Shown: positions 21,151 to 42,170 of the stretch, piece after piece
Position numbering within the stretch: the stretch's first letter is position 1
Layout of the letters: each line of letters opens with the position of its first letter
Sequence record: PZ721903.1
Length of the DNA stretch: 49,628 nt
Origin: a phage
Direction: 5' to 3' (one strand)
Translations under genes and position numbers: made by a program
Notes under the pieces: model-generated
Told to the model about the DNA's origin: nothing
The model's database searches: none
The model's input: only the letters and a program-made list of their open reading frames with translations

Positions 21151-21376
21151 ACATCGAGCAATCGTGAGACTTGAAGTTATTCTCTGATACGTAATGGAAT
21201 GAGAATGGATACCCAGCACGTAACAGCATCTCATCACCGCGCATCTTTGATCCAAAAACGGAAACCGAGTACTCTGCGTCACCTGATTCATAAATCGCAG
21301 TACAAGTGCGATCAGGCATCGATGAGCAACCAGTCAGGATGAATGCCGCAGCAATAATGGTGATTAATTTTTTCAT
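21149..21376 (-). CDS. cor: Cor-like superinfection exclusion lipoprotein
   Basis: Start at MKKLITIIAAAFILTGCSS (lipobox LTGC) behind RBS gagga; small lipoprotein encoded antisense just downstream of the J-like gene, as in T1/phi80/N15-type phages. Confidence 0.55.
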   Translation of the reverse strand: MKKLITIIAAAFILTGCSSMPDRTCTAIYESGDAEYSVSVFGSKMRGDEMLLRAGYPFSFHYVSENNFKSHDCSM

Positions 21377-21442
21377 TTGCATGTCCTCGTCGTTAGTGTG
21401 ATTGCATTGTATGTCGCATTTACTTTTATTGCAATAGCGCAA

Positions 21443-21845
21443 TTACAATTTTTTTTCGTGTAACGGGTGTCTATTTTTGTAACTGGAGATGGTGTTACAA
21501 AATCTACCCAATCCGAACGCAGGTAGATATGATAAAAACTCTATATAATATATATAGATAGATAATATTTAATTTTAGCTTTATATATATAATTATTGTT
21601 GTGTAACAGTTGTCTATCGTGTAACTGGTGATTTGATTGATTCGTCAAATTTCTATCATATATGTTCAAAATTTAATCAATATGGATTCTACTTGTAGCT
21701 ATCCCTGTATTTCTAAGAAAAAGCGGTTACAAGTATTACACAGTAGACATCACATAAAAATAGACTTAAGCCATTGATTCCGTTAATGCTGGTTGTAACT
21801 TGAGCGATATAGACACGCTATTACACACCAATTACATGTATCCGA
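21443..21845. promoter_or_regulatory. AT-rich noncoding region 1 with iterons (candidate origin / operator cluster)
   Basis: About 400 nt without ORFs; direct and inverted copies of GTGTAAC-N3-4-GTCTAT (21459-21476, 21604-21620, inverted near 21728-21749 and 21800-21818) plus the 17-mer ctatataatatatatag (21541-21557). Confidence 0.55.
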
Positions 21846-21873
21846 TTGACTAAACGCTGTTAATGGCTATAAT
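21846..21873 (+). promoter_or_regulatory. sigma70-like promoter (TTGACT-16-TATAAT) for the rightward recombination operon
   Basis: Near-consensus -35 at 21846-21851 and -10 at 21868-21873, followed by the CATCGtAAACGA box and RBS gggag before ATG 21905. Confidence 0.6.
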
Positions 21874-21904
21874 GGATTCATCGTAAACGAGGGAGATAAA
21901 CGCA

Positions 21905-22969: not shown

Positions 22970-23043
22970 ACGGCACAAATAGCTAAACAAATAATTAATG
23001 AGGTGTTATAATGCACCTCATACACCAATCAGGAGAAGTTAAG

Positions 23044-24152: not shown

Positions 24153-24180
24153 AAAAATCCCCGCAATGCGGGGATTTTAT
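24153..24180. terminator. bidirectional terminator between ssb (+) and tail fibre (-)
   Basis: aaaaatccccgcaatgcggggatttt: stem flanked by an A-run and a T-run. Confidence 0.65.
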
Positions 24181-25685
24181 CATTTGGACTTCAACATTTT
24201 TATCTCTTCTTGTAACTCTTCAACTTTCTTTATTGTATCCTGTAAAGCTCTCATAGTGTCAAGCAATAAAGGAGTTGTATCAAGCTCAAGCCTTTCAACT
24301 TTTGGCCCGTTTAGCTCGTGGCTCTCATACACCCTTCTCTTAACATATAGATTGTCGATCTCTTCTATCTCCTGAGCTATAACACCTCTCCTTACCCTTT
24401 CTTGCTCATCATCGTTAAATATAAAGTTCCTAAATCTCATTGATTTTATGTTGTTGTATGCAATGCTTGATTCATCATCCTTTATGCCGTGCTTTATATT
24501 TCTGTCAGATGCCGGAACCTGTTGGAAACTTCCAGCCCCTTGCGGTCCAGCGTAAGATATTTGCCCTGAAGCCATAAACCTGAAATGCATTTGCAGACCA
24601 ATATTGCCTGCTCCATCCCTATCTTGAGTGCCTACTGATATTTGTGCCCTGGGCCATTCAGGATTACCCGTAGTCATCATGCCAAATGCTACGCCGCCAA
24701 CGTATCCCTGACCTCTGGTGTCACACGATCCAGCAATAAGTGATTGATAGTTTTCAGCACCACTATCAGCGGTGTAAGCATTACCCTGGAAGCATGAAGC
24801 AGACCACATCTGGTTGTAACCCATAGATGTTTTCTGGCATAAAAACTGATTAGCTCTGAATCTATTGTTAGTCTCGAAGTAGTTTGCCCCCTCATAAAAT
24901 AATAAAGCCCCAGCATAACCATTATCGCTACGTTCTTTTCTGACGTAAATACCTGGCGTAGATATTCCATCAGGTGACATAATCATCAATGATGACAATA
25001 TGGACTGACTACCCCAGCTAGAACCGTCCCATGAATTCCTTCCTGCACCTATAGCGCCAGTGGTGTTAATAGCAAGAAAGTTAACAGCATCATTTTCACC
25101 TAACCCAATATTTTTTCTTGACTCTTTTTTATCCTCAAGACCAGCTAAATTGCCATCCTTAGTTAAAAGATTTTCAGCATTGATGCTGTTAGCTGCGTCT
25201 TTTGCTTCTTGAGCACTTACCGCAGCCGCATCTTTTGAGCTTACCGCATCGTCACGCGCTAATTCAGCCTGATTTTGCGCAGCTTGAGAATCAGATTTCG
25301 CCTGATTCACATCAGCAACTATTTGCTCAAGTTTATTCATATCAAGCTGATTTATCAGGTCTATAGCTGCCGCAATCTCAGTCTCTTTGCTTTGATAGTA
25401 TCGAAGAGTCTCGGCGACGTTTTGAGCTAATCCGTTAACGGTTAGAGAGTCATTAAGTAGGATCACATACTTACCGTCATCGGCAGTCTGACCATCAGTA
25501 GAGATAGCCTTTAATTCTGTATCACTAACGATATCGCTAATCACAGCTAGCTTAATTGGTTGCTCAAGGAACACGATAGTTGCACCTACGCGAATAAGAG
25601 CAAGCTGGTCTTTCCATTTTGTATCGGTTCCGTGAACCGTTCCGTCTGCATCCATTGATGCAGTACCGCGTCGATATAAAGCCAT
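24180..25685 (-). CDS. tail fibre with C-terminal intramolecular chaperone (peptidase S74-like)
   Basis: 501 aa; C-terminal region with SDRNIKHGIKD...RFRNFIF...coiled-coil tail typical of self-cleaving tail-fibre chaperone domains; RBS aaggag. Confidence 0.7.
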   Translation of the reverse strand: MALYRRGTASMDADGTVHGTDTKWKDQLALIRVGATIVFLEQPIKLAVISDIVSDTELKAISTDGQTADDGKYVILLNDSLTVNGLAQNVAETLRYYQSKETEIAAAIDLINQLDMNKLEQIVADVNQAKSDSQAAQNQAELARDDAVSSKDAAAVSAQEAKDAANSINAENLLTKDGNLAGLEDKKESRKNIGLGENDAVNFLAINTTGAIGAGRNSWDGSSWGSQSILSSLMIMSPDGISTPGIYVRKERSDNGYAGALLFYEGANYFETNNRFRANQFLCQKTSMGYNQMWSASCFQGNAYTADSGAENYQSLIAGSCDTRGQGYVGGVAFGMMTTGNPEWPRAQISVGTQDRDGAGNIGLQMHFRFMASGQISYAGPQGAGSFQQVPASDRNIKHGIKDDESSIAYNNIKSMRFRNFIFNDDEQERVRRGVIAQEIEEIDNLYVKRRVYESHELNGPKVERLELDTTPLLLDTMRALQDTIKKVEELQEEIKMLKSK

Positions 25686-26778: not shown

Positions 26779-26797
26779 TGTTTTAACTAAAAATGCT
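26779..26797. promoter_or_regulatory. palindromic box copy (variant)
   Basis: ttttaactaaaaatgctat overlapping the 3' end of the HTH gene (- strand). Confidence 0.5.
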
Positions 26798-27235
26798 ATT
26801 GGTCGTCCCGATATCTTCCTTCTTCACGACGCGCATAAATTTCTTGTTCTTGCATCGCTTCTCAAGGCACTTGCCGTTACCGTCAAACTTCAGGTCGAAT
26901 CGCAACCATGCGGCACGAAATCCTTTACACCCCTGTCGTCGGTAAGCACGATGCGCAGCTTCAGCACCTTGCCACGAAATCATGTTGCGTTCTTTCCAGC
27001 CTTGCACCGTCTGATTGCTAACCTTTAGAGCTTTTGCGCAGGCCGCAGGGCCACCATAATATTCGATAAGCGCATCAAGTCGCGCTCGCAATCCGGCGCG
27101 TGTTTCTTCTTTATGAATATAGAAGCCGCAGCGCTGTCGAGGCTTTTTATCTTTACCGCGTCGTGTTCCGTTGTTACCATTGATGTGACGTTTATCGATT
27201 TCACCAGTTGACTCTGCGATACGTTGAATACTCAT
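26783..27235 (-). CDS. HTH DNA-binding protein (Cro/YdaS-like, putative regulator)
   Basis: Helix-turn-helix-like segment GGPAACAKALKVSNQTVQGWKER and basic N-terminus; divergent from the helicase gene; stop codon lies inside a palindromic box copy. Confidence 0.45.
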   Translation of the reverse strand: MSIQRIAESTGEIDKRHINGNNGTRRGKDKKPRQRCGFYIHKEETRAGLRARLDALIEYYGGPAACAKALKVSNQTVQGWKERNMISWQGAEAAHRAYRRQGCKGFRAAWLRFDLKFDGNGKCLEKRCKNKKFMRVVKKEDIGTTNSIFS

Positions 27236-27247
27236 CTTAATTCTCCT

Positions 27248-27267
27248 ATAGCACTTTTTGCTAAAAA
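27248..27267 (+). promoter_or_regulatory. palindromic box + -10 (tattat) upstream of the helicase gene
   Basis: atagcactttttgctaaaaa, 22-nt spacer with inverted repeat aacgtttac/gtaaacgtt flanking tattat. Confidence 0.6.
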
Positions 27268-35070: not shown

Positions 35071-36639
35071 TTAACCCATCAGCCGAGGATTAATGAAAAC
35101 AATATCATCAATCCGGCAAGTGTAGTTCATCTCTTCGAGCGTGATAAGAAGACTATCGATTCGCTCAGATACTTTCTGTTGACCGTTGAAAGGCGTAACG
35201 TTCCGGCACTTTGCAACGATGCTATGAATAGGTGCGCGGCCTTTGTTTTTCTTCGCGATCTCAGTGATAACATCAATCAGCTTACGAGATTCAGCCTCAT
35301 CACCAGCATACCCGGCAGCGCTGGCAGACGACAGATAAGTCCTGGAAAGCTCATTGAAGATCATGATTGCTTCCTGCATTGTTTCAAGGTCAATCTCACG
35401 GTTGGAACGGTTCGGTGATTCACCCTCCCAATTCTTGATCGTGTGGAGAACTGAAGCAATACGCAAGGCGTGCTTATCGAACTTGCCGAGATGACCGCGT
35501 AGCATTGAGTGAGAGTATTTCCCACCTGCGGCGAAATCCGGTTCCATCGCCTGACGCGCAAGGTTTAATTCACGCATAGCATTACGGCTTACAGAGAGAA
35601 CAACGTTTTCCTCCTTCATGATGTTGTGAACGAGTCTGTAATATTTGCTAACCAGTCCTCGATCGACTTCTTTATACAATGCATCACCATTTTCATCACA
35701 AAGAATACGAGTACCTAAAAGCGGTTCCTCGCGAACTAACAGGAAGCGCTCAGATACACCGATACCTCGTTGGCCTGCGTCCATGATACCTTTGATTGTT
35801 TCATCCTGCGCAATTACGCAGATCGAGCCAACCGGGCAAAGAGACAAGTTGTTGTCCTGATTGGAGCGAGCGACCTCCATATGGTTTTTATCCCACGCCT
35901 TAAGAATAAGCTCACTGTTAGATTTCTTATCTGAACCTCCATACGTAAGACCGAGCAATGTATTGATTGCCGTTGCCTCATCAGAAATTACGGAAAAGTG
36001 GCCCTGAACAGCGGCTACTTTCGCAAGACCTTCAGGTGTAGGATCTGATACAGCAAAAACAATATCAGCCATCTTTTTGATCTTCTCTTCCAGTTTTTCT
36101 TTGTCCTCGTATAGTGCCGCAGTCGTGTTTCCTTTAGGATCATTCTTGATTTCCTTCTCAACCTGGCGTAGCTGACTGGTTAAACGAATACGTTCCTTTT
36201 TGCGCTCTTCATTCAGTCGCTGAATCTCCGCACGCATAGGTGTAATCGCCGCTGAGTTAATCGCGGACTTACCTGTTGATGGTGGCTGGCTGATTACCAT
36301 GTAAAGCGCGGTCGGCTGTTCCTCTCCGTGATATTGCACCCAAAACTTCCCGAGCATCGCGGCTGAGATGCAACCTATAAAATGAGCATACGCGGATGAA
36401 ACCGGGAACTGGACTGATTCAGCTTTTGCTTTTGCATATTCGAATACCAGGTTATCGCCACCTAACGAAATCAGAGGGAACTTATCGTTGCCGCTATTGA
36501 TATCGATCGGATCTTGCCAAAATGAAACTGAGTCACCATAGCTGTTTTCACGAATTGCGATCGCCACCGGATTAACTCCAGTGCTATTGGCGATCTCAAT
36601 AATCTGTTGGTAATTCAGTTTTGGCTTAATATTAAACAT
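35071..36639 (-). CDS. P-loop NTPase (putative replication-associated ATPase/helicase)
   Basis: Start at MFNIKPK behind RBS aaggag; Walker A-like SQPPSTGKS; 522 aa. Confidence 0.45.
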   Translation of the reverse strand: MFNIKPKLNYQQIIEIANSTGVNPVAIAIRENSYGDSVSFWQDPIDINSGNDKFPLISLGGDNLVFEYAKAKAESVQFPVSSAYAHFIGCISAAMLGKFWVQYHGEEQPTALYMVISQPPSTGKSAINSAAITPMRAEIQRLNEERKKERIRLTSQLRQVEKEIKNDPKGNTTAALYEDKEKLEEKIKKMADIVFAVSDPTPEGLAKVAAVQGHFSVISDEATAINTLLGLTYGGSDKKSNSELILKAWDKNHMEVARSNQDNNLSLCPVGSICVIAQDETIKGIMDAGQRGIGVSERFLLVREEPLLGTRILCDENGDALYKEVDRGLVSKYYRLVHNIMKEENVVLSVSRNAMRELNLARQAMEPDFAAGGKYSHSMLRGHLGKFDKHALRIASVLHTIKNWEGESPNRSNREIDLETMQEAIMIFNELSRTYLSSASAAGYAGDEAESRKLIDVITEIAKKNKGRAPIHSIVAKCRNVTPFNGQQKVSERIDSLLITLEEMNYTCRIDDIVFINPRLMG

Positions 36640-38847: not shown

Positions 38848-39033
38848 TTAGAATTTTACTTCCTCAACAAGCTCAACCATTTTATAACCCAGGCGATATG
38901 AGTCGCCGAACAACAACAGACCCATAAATTCATCGTTGGTTATCGACTCCTTACCAACAGTTTTAAGTTCTCCGTTGTGAATCACAGTATCGCCGATCTT
39001 GATTTCTGATTTATGCACTAATTTCGTTTTCAT
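38848..39033 (-). CDS. hypothetical protein
   Basis: 61 aa ORF in operon context. Confidence 0.45.
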   Translation of the reverse strand: MKTKLVHKSEIKIGDTVIHNGELKTVGKESITNDEFMGLLLFGDSYRLGYKMVELVEEVKF

Positions 39034-39048
39034 TTGTTAGCCTGTTAA

Positions 39049-39234
39049 TTAAAAGAACGCTACATAGTTTGCAATACCTTTTGCATCGTCGTTAGGCATC
39101 GCCTTGACAGCCAGGTCATAACCAGCCTCTACCTTCTGCTTTGCTGATTCTTCGTTGTATCCCCAAATAACCAGGATTTTAACTACGTTTTCTTTGTTCA
39201 GAACTTTAAGGTATTTAGTGATGCGACGTGCCAT
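39049..39234 (-). CDS. hypothetical protein
   Basis: Start at MARRITK behind gaggaaaaacaaa; complete cassette upstream. Confidence 0.5.
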   Translation of the reverse strand: MARRITKYLKVLNKENVVKILVIWGYNEESAKQKVEAGYDLAVKAMPNDDAKGIANYVAFF

Positions 39235-39293
39235 TTTGTTTTTCCTCAATCTCGTTTCGATGAGGTAATTATGCCAAATCGCACCGATCGAGT

Positions 39294-39312
39294 TTTAACA
39301 AAAAGTGCTATT
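39294..39312 (-). promoter_or_regulatory. palindromic box copy, leftward cassette
   Basis: ttttaacaaaaagtgctat; contains the methyltransferase stop; on the - strand followed by cataat and CATCGAAACGAG. Confidence 0.6.
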
Positions 39313-39999
39313 TGCGATCGCTTTGAAAAATCCACGAGGAGATAAGGAACGTATCAGCTTCGTTTTGGCAGACTTGCCGCCCAGCTTGTTTTGCTGTGCA
39401 GAGTACCCGTCAGGCAGGTTTACAGGCTTCCTTTCTGGCATGACAAAGTCGTCCGAAGTCCAAAGACAAGTTTTCTTCGGGTAAGCATCGCGCGGCGCAA
39501 TATACATCGGGAACCAGGGGTGTGCGTCATTCTCAGGAAGATAGCCGCCATACTCCCAGGGATTGAAAGTGTGGTCAGCCTTTCGCCAGGCTGATGACAG
39601 GACGCTAACCGGATTCTCAATGATGTAAGTCACACCCAGGCTATCACCGATGTTCGCGGCAATCCGGGCGGTGGCAACAGCTTTCTCCTGGAATAGCGGA
39701 TCACGTTTACGCTTGCTGGCAAAGTGTCGAGCACCACTAACGGCCAGGTCAGTGCACGGCGGGAAGGCCATAATGAAATCCGGCTTGCCATACACACCCG
39801 CGATCGCATCACGTTCGAACGTTTCATCAATGAACACGTTCACATACTCAATGTTGGGATGCTCTACCCGGGCATTGTACTTTGCATAATCTCCGTGATC
39901 GGCTCCGTCAAAGTTGAAGCACATCACTTTATGACCTTGCTTTGCCAGTTCATGACCAGCCAGGCCCGAGCCGTCGAATAGTGACCAGATTAATTTCAT
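39295..39999 (-). CDS. DNA cytosine-5 methyltransferase-like protein
   Basis: Motif I-like FDGSG, PC motif FPPCTDLA and ENP motif in the expected order for C5-MTases; short (234 aa), so the target-recognition region is minimal. Confidence 0.5.
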   Translation of the reverse strand: MKLIWSLFDGSGLAGHELAKQGHKVMCFNFDGADHGDYAKYNARVEHPNIEYVNVFIDETFERDAIAGVYGKPDFIMAFPPCTDLAVSGARHFASKRKRDPLFQEKAVATARIAANIGDSLGVTYIIENPVSVLSSAWRKADHTFNPWEYGGYLPENDAHPWFPMYIAPRDAYPKKTCLWTSDDFVMPERKPVNLPDGYSAQQNKLGGKSAKTKLIRSLSPRGFFKAIANSTFC

Positions 40000-40208
40000 T
40001 TCGTTACCTCCTGGAAAACAGTTTGTCCGCTATTGGTCAGGAAGCGCCCGATCTTATTCATTGACCGGAACACGCCGATCTGATTCTGATGATTGTCAGT
40101 CGCGAAGTAACCGCCATCAATAAGGTAGATTTCATACACTGATTGATTCGTGAAGCTGTCAGTGCTGACGCTAACACATCGTACGGTACATTCAAATTCT
40201 GGTTCCAT
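39996..40208 (-). CDS. hypothetical protein (first gene of leftward early operon)
   Basis: Preceded by a cassette with CCAATCAGAGGA RBS; ATGA coupling to the next gene. Confidence 0.5.
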   Translation of the reverse strand: MEPEFECTVRCVSVSTDSFTNQSVYEIYLIDGGYFATDNHQNQIGVFRSMNKIGRFLTNSGQTVFQEVTK

Positions 40209-40268
40209 TGCCTGAGTCCTCTGATTGGTTGATGTGATGAATCATACCCTGCCGACCTGGCTGAGTCG

Positions 40269-40285
40269 TTAGCAAAAAATGCTAT
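40269..40285 (-). promoter_or_regulatory. palindromic box copy, leftward early promoter
   Basis: ttagcaaaaaatgctat; on the - strand followed by TATGATTCATCACATCAACCAATCAGAGGA and ATG 40208. Confidence 0.6.
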
Positions 40286-40476
40286 TCCAATAATTGCTCA
40301 TTATTCCATCAATAGCGGAATAGGTGGAATAATTCTGATTGCGATTGATTGCAAATGATGAAACGTGATTATTGCATGGTTTTCAACAGTTGGTTGATTT
40401 GTTGCTTAGATTGCAATGATTGTGAGAGGGGGGGGAATCTAGTGTTGCCCGGTTCGCCTGGTAATCATCTCCATTT

Positions 40477-40493
40477 TTAGCAAAAAGTGCTAT
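40477..40493 (-). promoter_or_regulatory. palindromic box copy, leftward, in control region 2
   Basis: ttagcaaaaagtgctat about 200 nt upstream of the previous copy; no ORF between them. Confidence 0.5.
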
Positions 40494-40896
40494 CGATTAC
40501 ACTTTACCTTGTCACAGATGTAATATTTGTCTAGAATCGCACTTGTGACAAAATTACACACTGTGACGCCTCTAAATATACATATAGATATATGTATCTA
40601 TATAATATATATAGTGTTTTCTTTATTTATATATATAGATAATTATATTGTAATAGTTGTGTATAGTTGTCTTACATTGTCTAGCGTACTGTTGGCATAT
40701 TTCTATCTGCATGTTTATATATACAGTACTTTTTTGAGAGCTATATATTTCTATAGTGACTCTAGACAGCTAGACAAATGTTACACAGCTTAATATCGGC
40801 TCGCAGTCATTGACAGCTCTGTATCGCACTGTCACAATGTCAATTGTTGACACATTATGACGCCATTTACACACGAATAGACAAAGAGGATATATT

Positions 40897-41412
40897 ATGA
40901 GCAATACCAATCAGGAATTAAAAATCACCGATATGATTCGCCTAACCTGCGACGCAATGTATCGCGACAAAGGCATGAGTGAGTTCTCTTTCGTGGCTGA
41001 TGATATGGCCCTGGAAGGCGCACGATTCTACTTCCGTGGCCAGGAGGTAAGCGATAGCGATCTTGAATCTGCCGCTGCCGGATGGGTGGACCAGAACCAG
41101 GGTGAGGTGGAGAAGCGATTCAAGTCTGCTTTCATTACGCCAATCATTACCCGGCACTTTTGCAAGTATGGCAAGGTGGCAAAGGTGAAGGTAGGCCGGA
41201 ATGACGCTGCAATCACAATGATAACGGTTATCGTTACCGACGAAGAGATTCCCGTGAAGAAGCGCCGCAGCCGGAAAAAAGTTAGCCTGGCCGACTGCCT
41301 GGATTCGTTTGATGTTGATGTTGGCAAGCTATCGGATAGCGAGTTAATGGTTCGCGACGTGAATGAGATCGTACGCCAGATGAAAGCACATATCGAAAAG
41401 TGCGGGCTGTAA
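40897..41412 (+). CDS. hypothetical early protein
   Basis: 171 aa, RBS aagagga; first gene of the rightward early operon. Confidence 0.55.
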   Translation: MSNTNQELKITDMIRLTCDAMYRDKGMSEFSFVADDMALEGARFYFRGQEVSDSDLESAAAGWVDQNQGEVEKRFKSAFITPIITRHFCKYGKVAKVKVGRNDAAITMITVIVTDEEIPVKKRRSRKKVSLADCLDSFDVDVGKLSDSELMVRDVNEIVRQMKAHIEKCGL

Positions 41413-41502: not shown

Positions 41503-41697
41503 ATGGAAACGCAAATTGACGTAGTGGTTGTTCAGCGAGACTCAACTCATGAAAAGGGTCTGTTCAAGAAAGGAACCGAAATCACGATCGACCTTGAGGA
41601 TATGGTTGCGTATCACTCTGGCCTCACTTGGAACGTGGTGCGCGTAGGCAGCGACTACAAACTCAAAGGCTTTAACACTTACTTTGCGGAGGTTTAA
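41503..41697 (+). CDS. hypothetical protein
   Basis: Cassette upstream; RBS gagga. Confidence 0.5.
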   Translation: METQIDVVVVQRDSTHEKGLFKKGTEITIDLEDMVAYHSGLTWNVVRVGSDYKLKGFNTYFAEV

Positions 41698-41699
41698 TT

Positions 41700-42170
41700 A
41701 TGGCGACAATTACCGTATTTCTTGCTAAAGATGAGCTTGATGGCGAAATGTCATTCTTCGCGTTTGAGCATAAAACCGGCTCGCACTGGCACACTTACAG
41801 CCATTACACGGTTATCTCAATCGAAGCGTACGACGGCGAACTGCTCACTGATAAACTGAGTAATTTCATTGAAGCCGTTAAAGCTAGCGGCGGCTGCGAG
41901 TGGAAGGAAGATCACGAAGTTATGCGAATGTTTGAGATGGTCAATCCGGTTCGCCTTGAGTCGTTCGAGCTTGATGCTAATGTGACTATCAAGGTGAGAA
42001 AGTCGGGTGAGTTATTGCCAGGGATGCGTGTACTGACTGGTTACTCTGGCCGTAAGGTGTGGCGCACTGTATCCAAGATTCGCCAGCGCTCGGCAACATG
42101 CTATAGCGTATTCTTTGATGATGGTTGGAATATGATGTCCGGTAGTGAGGTAAAGTATCTCACCAAATAG
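41700..42170 (+). CDS. hypothetical protein
   Basis: 156 aa; stop TAG lies in box copy 42167. Confidence 0.5.
   Translation: MATITVFLAKDELDGEMSFFAFEHKTGSHWHTYSHYTVISIEAYDGELLTDKLSNFIEAVKASGGCEWKEDHEVMRMFEMVNPVRLESFELDANVTIKVRKSGELLPGMRVLTGYSGRKVWRTVSKIRQRSATCYSVFFDDGWNMMSGSEVKYLTK

Follow-up and report, generated by a model that had tools for sequence, protein, structure and literature searches.

In lambda and P22, two control regions, OL and OR, carry shared short sites at early promoters, which are recognized by CI and Cro. In SPP1 (oriL/oriR, with G38P) and P4 (ori/crr, with alpha), one initiator acts on repeated short boxes situated at two distant places by AT-rich DNA. A further arrangement is found in the origins of staphylococcal pathogenicity islands (SaPI), in which 6–12 copies of 5–6-nt iterons lie in opposite directions on both sides of an AT-rich centre (PMC9371898). 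These iterons are element-specific, and their reader is the C-terminal winged helix of Rep, a self-loading helicase that has SF3/SF6 (MCM-like) features (PMC9371898). For the family of T1-like phages, no origin or iterons were found according to the genome papers (PMC11447400, PMC7718038), and our literature search yielded no origin mapping or transcription start-site data for the T1 family.

The window analysed here, a stretch of 49,628 nt (sequence record PZ721903.1), is a complete T1-like phage genome (Tunavirus, Drexlerviridae), and it contains two intergenic regions, R1 and R2, that invite comparison with these systems. R1 very probably represents a real, selected protein–DNA assembly site, being one of two paralogous modules conserved in the family. 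The first-pass annotation had proposed that R1 is an origin of replication or a multi-operator switch; the part common to both proposals, namely conserved protein-binding sites that are arrayed about an AT-rich core and duplicated in R2, is borne out by the analysis. Most likely, R1 is an origin of replication that has so far escaped mapping; otherwise, it would be a switch of early genes with multiple operators. With respect to the SaPI origin, which is characterized by six or more short iterons, R1 contains 11 TGTAAY and 4 conserved GTCTA sites. Its AT-rich core (21526–21598) lies near the centre with sites on both sides, and the phage encodes a counterpart of the self-loading helicase with a C-terminal winged helix, as indicated by a DUF3987 match and a structural model. 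The SaPI origin lies directly downstream of the initiator gene, whereas the helicase gene of this phage occupies 35071–36639. The features of R1 and its borders are as follows.

21377–21904: R1, the whole intergenic region from cor to the exoVIII-erf-ssb operon
Start codon at 21376, minus strand: cor, the left neighbour of R1
21406–21434, minus strand: candidate sigma-70 promoter for cor (TTGCAA-17-TACAAT, 9/12 in a consensus scan; 97% identical to T1)
21442–21447, minus strand: outermost left hexamer, 7 nt from the −35 element of cor (ATTACA on the plus strand; 5/6 positions invariant in 7 tunaviruses)
21458–21483, plus strand: left array, GTGTAAC-GGG-TGTCTA-TTTT-TGTAAC, with three sites about 9.5 bp apart
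21475–21502: palindrome, TTTTGTAAC-N10-GTTACAAAA, which supplies the minus-strand site beside the left side of the core
21526–21598: AT-rich core, a putative DNA unwinding element, containing the 18-mer TCTATATAATATATATAG at 21540–21557
21599–21625, plus strand: right-proximal array, TGTGTAAC-AGT-TGTCTAT-CG-TGTAAC, within a 128-nt stretch that aligns with R2
21637–21777, plus strand: 46-codon ORF (CPTT1_049 in the T1 record), probably not a gene
21726–21749, minus strand: right-distal inverted array, GTTACA-AGTA-TTACAC-AG-TAGACA, at +190 to +208 from the core
21794–21836: outer right array, TGTAAC (plus strand) followed by ATAGACAC-GCT-ATTACAC-ACCA-ATTACA (minus strand, 21809–21836)
21846–21873, plus strand: sigma-70 promoter of exoVIII-erf-ssb (TTGACT-16-TATAAT, 11/12 match)
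From 21905, plus strand: exoVIII-erf-ssb recombination operon, the right neighbour of R1

All the repeats reported in the first-pass annotation are present, within 0–3 nt of the positions given there. The two direct copies, GTGTAAC-GGG-TGTCTAT-TTT-TGTAAC and GTGTAAC-AGT-TGTCTAT-CG-TGTAAC, start at 21458 and 21601 (previously 21459 and 21604), and the inverted copies, formerly placed at about 21723 and about 21791, are found at 21725–21749 and 21791–21836. The AT tract described as recurring in R2 is the exact 18-mer, which occurs at 21540 and 40597. The repeats that had been assigned to a unit of roughly 40 nt are real, but a more fitting description of this unit is a hexamer triplet with a phasing of mostly 9–10 bp, close to a single turn of the helix. 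The sites in R1 form four composite arrays, each comprising about three sub-sites at this spacing, together with single hexamers at 21442 (minus strand), 21494 (minus strand), and 21794 (plus strand). The term iteron is appropriate in the SaPI sense of 5–6-nt repeats and does not apply in the sense of plasmid and lambda origins, since the unit is a hexamer and not an iteron of 17–22 bp.

A repeat content no higher than background had been set beforehand as the outcome speaking against the proposal. Between 21440 and 21845, TGTAAY occurs 11 times, compared with 1.3 ± 1.2 in dinucleotide-preserving shuffles, none of which (0/1000) reaches 11. Counting TGTAAY or TGTCTA, 15 sites are found in the same interval against 1.6 expected, and conserved GTCTA occurs four times in R1 against 0.7 expected. 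Genome-wide, there are five TGTAAY-N3-5-GTCTA composites, three of them in R1, two in R2, and none elsewhere. In an alignment of the R1 arms from seven tunaviruses, 87% of the hexamer positions are invariant, compared with 64% of the other positions (Fisher p = 1e-4); the hexamers are conserved, and the spacers between them vary freely. The palindrome follows the same pattern, with invariant arms and a variable N10 centre.

Both candidate promoters at the edges of R1 point outward, and a hexamer is situated 7–9 nt upstream of each −35 element (about −47). The outer right array ends 9 nt before the −35 element of the exoVIII promoter, which is also annotated in the T1, Chapo, and SA12KD records, and the juxtaposition of hexamer and promoter recurs in SRT8 and PeterMerian. 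Since the outermost sites abut the −35 regions of cor and exoVIII, protein binding at the arrays probably modulates these promoters as well. Promoter scans of the AT core revealed no convincing −35/−10 pair at a conserved position; in most lineages, the core starts with a TATAAT-like hexamer. A ATCCGCGCAAAA-like box, here at 21510–21523, occurs in several genera after the left array and before the core. This box is not lineage-specific, unlike the hexamers, and may be read by a conserved factor.

The R1 region is 99.8–100% identical to those of JMPW2 and SH2 and about 92% identical to that of T1. Although non-coding, R1 is constrained: its 92.4% identity to T1 exceeds that of the third codon positions in cor (72%) and exoVIII (79%), and the 73 nt of the AT core (21526–21598) are 100% identical in T1. 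The higher identity of R1 relative to the flanking third codon positions indicates purifying selection on non-coding DNA. No match to R1 was detected in 72,556 plasmids and 5,426 E. coli genomes. The GC skew tracks gene orientation without a change at R1 and is uninformative.

The window is a mosaic around the conserved modules. Six genes flanking R2 (38848–40208 and 41503–42170) have no T1 counterpart; among them, the 234-aa product encoded at 39295–39999 has homologues annotated as DNA methylase in other phage records. The tail-fibre gene (24180–25685) matches T1 over just 193 of 501 residues.

R2, named control region 2 in the first-pass annotation, is a colinear paralogue of R1. Its components are listed below.

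40209–40896: R2, between two divergent operons of small early genes
40510–40535, plus strand: R2 array
About 40575–40648: R2 core
40649–40685, plus strand: R2 array
40762–40787, minus strand: R2 array
40866–40884, minus strand: R2 array
40897–41412: gene of the R2-adjacent 171-aa protein, the first rightward gene (51% identical to T1 ORF77)

The longest word common to R1 and R2 has 18 nt, compared with a maximum of 14 in 300 shuffles that kept local composition, and further 9–13-mers are shared. Over about 128 nt, 21492–21620 aligns with 40543–40667, and the local alignment score is 56, against 27 ± 5 (maximum 46) in shuffles of the same kind. As with the shared operators of lambdoid phages, TGTAAY and TGTCTA sites are common to both regions. 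In R2, the sites overlap a predicted promoter (TTGTCA-17-TAGAAT). In the R2 arms, a further motif is present that is exchanged between members of the genus, being TGTCTAG in this phage and GTTAATC in T1. Four of the five genome copies of TGTCTAG lie within R2 (40510–40535, 40677–40685, 40762–40787, and 40866–40884), and the GTTAATC motif of T1 R2 includes three tandem ACGATTAAC repeats. Across this swap, the AT core and the replication proteins are still 95–99% identical. The R2 motif type corresponds to the type of the adjacent 171-aa early protein in 8/8 tunavirus genomes, a co-variation that is confounded by their physical adjacency. The model of the 171-aa protein (pLDDT 86) gave no significant match in the PDB, the best having E = 0.14.

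Two further elements were observed in R2. A LexA-box-like sequence, ATGTTTATATATACAG, at 40711–40726 is invariant in five tunaviruses, and SRT8 R2 carries a perfect CTGT-N8-ACAG box, CTGTGTATATATACAG, at the same place, which is 36183–36198 in its own coordinates. In GenBank, the genomes of T1 and JMPW1 have been opened into linear records at one and the same point, which corresponds to 40371 of the window and belongs to the left portion of R2. This position falls within a TGATTG/GGAATA-rich segment (40209–40480) that is common to several Drexlerviridae lineages and absent from R1. The linearisation point could be a pac region or a copied convention.

Paired modules of about 400 nt, one of the R1 type and one of the R2 type, were found in every T1-like genome examined. 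In each of five genomes tested (the window, T1, SRT8, Alina, and PeterMerian), no duplex stretch is less stable than these two cores, at 4.5–6.3 SD; the next in rank reaches about 3.5 SD. In the window, the R2 core is the least stable 60-nt duplex (5.7 SD), followed by the R1 core (5.5 SD). We aligned 11 modules from seven Drexlerviridae phages on their least stable 60-nt window, and this superposition revealed a common geometry. On the left, plus-strand sites are located mostly at −95 to −50, with a minus-strand site just left of the core. On the right, plus-strand sites at +49 to +113 are followed by minus-strand sites at +147 to +212 and, farther out, by a plus-strand and then a minus-strand group at about +200 to +303. 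In 11/11 modules, the core is bordered most closely by a minus-strand site on the left and by a plus-strand site on the right, and the main clusters on both sides are plus-strand. The right-distal array keeps the same position relative to the core in all 11. Of 44 pairs of neighbouring sites with the same orientation, 34 have a spacing of 8–11 bp. Measured from the core, the rightward promoter is found at +293 to +310 in R1 modules (four genera) and at +222 to +248 in R2 modules. Since this distance varies and that between the sites and the core is fixed, the sites track the core and not the flanking promoters.

A non-coding stretch of 400–750 nt with an equal layout lies upstream of exoVIII in every Drexlerviridae genus examined, namely Sertoctavirus, Warwickvirus, Tlsvirus, Webervirus, and Wilsonroadvirus, and in an unclassified Braunvirinae member. 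The hexamer that occupies these positions is specific to the lineage: TGTAAY in the window phage and T1, TGTAAT in SRT8, YGTAAC in SU57 and Sd1, GTAAGA(T) in Alina, and TGTTAT/TGTTCY in PeterMerian, mar001J1, and Sazh. An R2 counterpart with the lineage's own motif is present in each of three further complete genomes examined. In Alina, 15 of the 17 genome-wide copies of GTAAGAT fall within the two modules, which share a colinear core, and R1 retains both arms between the co-directional primase and exoVIII genes. The apparent terminator hairpin of the Alina primase gene consists of two inverted iteron copies, GGTAAGA...TCTTACC, followed by a T-run. Different hexamers at equal positions in phages of the same host, E. 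coli K-12, indicate that the reader is phage-encoded and co-evolves with its sites.

Relatives outside Drexlerviridae carry exoVIII directly behind the helicase and nuclease genes without an upstream module, which argues that the module is not simply the exoVIII promoter. Two distant environmental phages, with a helicase identity of 35–37%, exhibit a similar layout with GC-rich iterons, GGGCTA or GGGCG; in both, an identical 12-mer, GGTATATAAGGG, is located at the left border of the AT core. Among 80 IMG/VR loci, an R2 module precedes the helicase gene in most of those with enough upstream flank, and automatic motif calling on these loci was too noisy for a co-variation statistic.

Two proteins of this phage are candidates for reading the hexamers.

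35071–36639, minus strand: DUF3987/MCM-like replicative helicase (Pfam DUF3987, E = 3e-42; 'putative ATPase' in T1)
26783–27235, minus strand: Cro/C2-like protein of 150 aa with a helix-turn-helix, encoded upstream of the primase; the alternative candidate

DUF3987 has been assigned to MCM-like replicative helicases with a C-terminal winged helix (PMC4889955). The AlphaFold model of the helicase has a pLDDT of 88, and its top 50 Foldseek matches in the PDB are all MCM-containing entries (50/50). In this model, we read residues about 447–516 (H-S-H-H-S-S; about 35092–35301) as a winged helix, and we infer that this domain is the best candidate for the hexamer binder. The Cro-like protein shows a weak P22_Cro Pfam match and corresponds to phrog_2856, 'transcriptional regulator' (E = 1e-76). 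The protein is a conserved one within the family, with a recognition helix that differs by lineage. Between the orthologues of four lineages, variation is seen in this helix as well as in helix three of the helicase winged-helix domain, and does not discriminate between the two candidates. Sequence searches of solved structures gave no match for either protein. The phage also encodes a primase, and no Rep or O homologue was present among 10 proteins scanned.

These observations favour an origin of the SaPI kind, linked with the early promoters on its flanks, over a pure switch, and judging from sequence features we assign this reading a probability of roughly 45%. It is favoured by the exceptionally low duplex stability of the cores, the site geometry fixed to the core, and the presence of an MCM-like winged-helix helicase. 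The distance of the modules from the helicase gene (about 13 kb for R1 and about 3.5 kb for R2) argues against it, as do several properties that an operator array would also display. The multi-operator switch, in which a regulator occupying the R1 and R2 arrays would turn the early promoters on or off together, is accordingly a real possibility, although we hold it to be somewhat doubtful. Its regulator would be the 150-aa Cro/C2-like protein, together in R2 with the 171-aa protein, and the AT core would act as a promoter or as bending DNA. The modules head early operons in nearly all phages examined, and the hexamers lie immediately upstream of the cor and exoVIII −35 elements, a placement kept in SRT8 and PeterMerian; in R2, the sites even overlap the predicted promoter. 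The 6-4-6 palindromes of Alina, GTAAGA-N4-TCTTAC, are typical for helix-turn-helix dimers and presumably resemble the P22 operator half-site. The family-conserved Cro-like protein with its variable recognition helix would suit such a role, and the TATAAT-like start of the core means that the core could hold promoters. The match between the R2 motif and the 171-aa protein type resembles an autoregulated switch, an argument weakened by the adjacency of the two. Against a switch, the sites are fixed relative to the AT core and not to the flanking promoters, and most of them are tandem direct repeats, not palindromes, at 100–300 nt from any predicted promoter. The core lacks a convincing −35/−10 pair, and its invariance and extreme duplex instability exceed the needs of a promoter. 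Moreover, Alina R1 retains its left arm, though no leftward-transcribed gene is present there. The origin and switch readings are compatible with each other, and telling them apart is beyond the reach of sequence.

The remaining explanations are far less probable. It is improbable that the modules serve another DNA transaction, either as a headful packaging site (pac) of the small terminase or as a hotspot of the phage recombination system. Hexamer arrays flank a central region in the P1 pac site, the T1 and JMPW1 records are linearised in R2, and R1 lies directly 5' of the recombination operon. In contrast, a headful phage needs one pac site, whereas two colinear modules are present here. The record start is positioned about 200 nt left of the R2 core in the TGATTG/GGAATA-rich segment that R1 lacks, and R1 has no link to the genome termini; the out-of-family relatives carry exoVIII without the module. 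Still less credible is a view of R1 as ordinary AT-rich promoter DNA bound by host factors only (DnaA, OmpR, CRP, IHF, or H-NS). By inspection, TGTGTAACA and TATTACACA agree with the relaxed DnaA box (TTWTNCACA) at 8/9 positions, and the GTTACA tandems resemble OmpR half-sites. However, host factors would predict a single motif, whereas T1 has TGTAAY and PeterMerian TGTTAT on the same host, E. coli K-12, and the Klebsiella phage Alina has GTAAGA instead. DnaA, OmpR, CRP, and LexA were rejected as general readers because the motif differs among phages of the same host. The least probable reading makes R1 the gene of a small protein or of a structured small RNA. The earlier description of the region as devoid of ORFs holds in substance; the T1 record does annotate the 46-codon ORF, which is open in 7/7 aligned tunaviruses. 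Its variable columns are distributed over codon positions 1/2/3 as 9/15/10, without third-position bias, the codon differences comprise 74 non-synonymous and 13 synonymous changes, and no counterpart exists in SRT8. A small protein was rejected for this absence of a coding signature. The whole window has no Rfam match, and RNAalifold on seven sub-regions of the 7-phage alignment, on both strands, gave z-scores all above −1.6 with negligible covariation, on which grounds a structured RNA in R1 was rejected.

As an origin, R1 would function as follows. A phage-encoded, sequence-specific protein would coat the hexamer arrays; once bound, it would melt the core, and helicase would be loaded at either flank. 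Bidirectional replication, which we infer to start at R1, would follow through the phage primase and the host polymerase. The SaPI origins operate in this manner. The same binding event would probably modulate the cor and exoVIII early promoters too. More broadly, and tentatively, T1-like phages and distant relatives with MCM-like helicases may replicate from two paralogous, iteron-flanked origins read by the helicase winged helix. These origins may be wired into early promoters, with R2 bearing swappable second sites matched to the adjacent gene, a suggestion that we hold just as tentatively.

T1 is a classic coliphage and a notorious laboratory contaminant. The two modules make the question of the family's missing origin directly testable. 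If the two-origin proposal is correct, they would give Drexlerviridae its first described origin and would exemplify, in a bacterial virus, the loading of MCM-type helicases to the left and right of an AT-rich centre. If the switch is correct, they would represent the circuit by which a virulent phage family controls its early genes, with an immunity-like swapping of operator and regulator between close relatives. Across genera, the modules provide motif variants with matching protein variants, a natural series that can be used to study DNA reading by an MCM-like phage helicase or by a Cro-like regulator.

Among described elements, the 21-nt direct repeats ATAGCACnnnTTGnTAAAA of TLS and other T1-like phages (PMC11447400) are likewise repeated intergenic elements of the same phage family. 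The corresponding 18-nt search pattern, ATAGCACNNNTTGNTAAA, has 17 exact occurrences in the window and 31 within 3 mismatches, against 5.9 expected. These comprise about 20 intergenic sites in 24000–49000 (for example, 27248–27265 and 40476–40493), with two in the left part of R2. None lies in 21377–21904, and the nearest is a 3-mismatch match at 22970. The copies in early regions are mostly co-oriented with genes. The repeat contains an inverted repeat, TAGCA-N5-TGCTA, and its TGTTA variant would still pair via G-U, so that an RNA or DNA hairpin is possible. Unlike the hexamers, this repeat is conserved across the family and not lineage-specific, has another sequence, and occurs as single copies between genes.

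In E. coli oriC, an unwinding element is situated beside phased initiator boxes of about 9 bp, with two sub-arrays facing each other, a layout that R1 resembles. In contrast to oriC, the R1 core lies between the arrays and not at one end, R1 has no GATC cluster, and the lineage specificity of the hexamer argues against DnaA as its reader. With SPP1 and P4, the modules share repeated boxes at two distant AT-rich places, which one phage initiator would serve here as well. The repeat sequences and the proteins differ: SPP1 oriL is inside the initiator gene, and P4 alpha is a primase–helicase fusion of another family. As in lambda and P22, separated regions carry common sites that differ between related phages and would co-evolve with a phage regulator. 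Lambdoid operators are palindromes of 17–18 bp overlapping the −35/−10 elements, whereas the sites here are mostly tandem hexamers up to 300 nt from promoters. The sole palindrome, TGTAAC-N10-GTTACA, is not of the roughly 17-bp lambdoid type, and the R1 sites stop 7–9 nt short of the −35 elements; in R2, one predicted promoter is overlapped. The sites in the window are centred on an invariant AT core that is absent in lambda, and the window phage is virulent. The T1-like modules depart from the SaPI origin, which is directly downstream of rep, in lying 3.5 and 13 kb from the helicase gene, in being two per genome, in adjoining early promoters, and in extending about 300 nt to one side with two further arrays. 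They share with it the short, element-specific iterons on both sides of an AT centre and the MCM-like helicase with a winged helix, predicted here.
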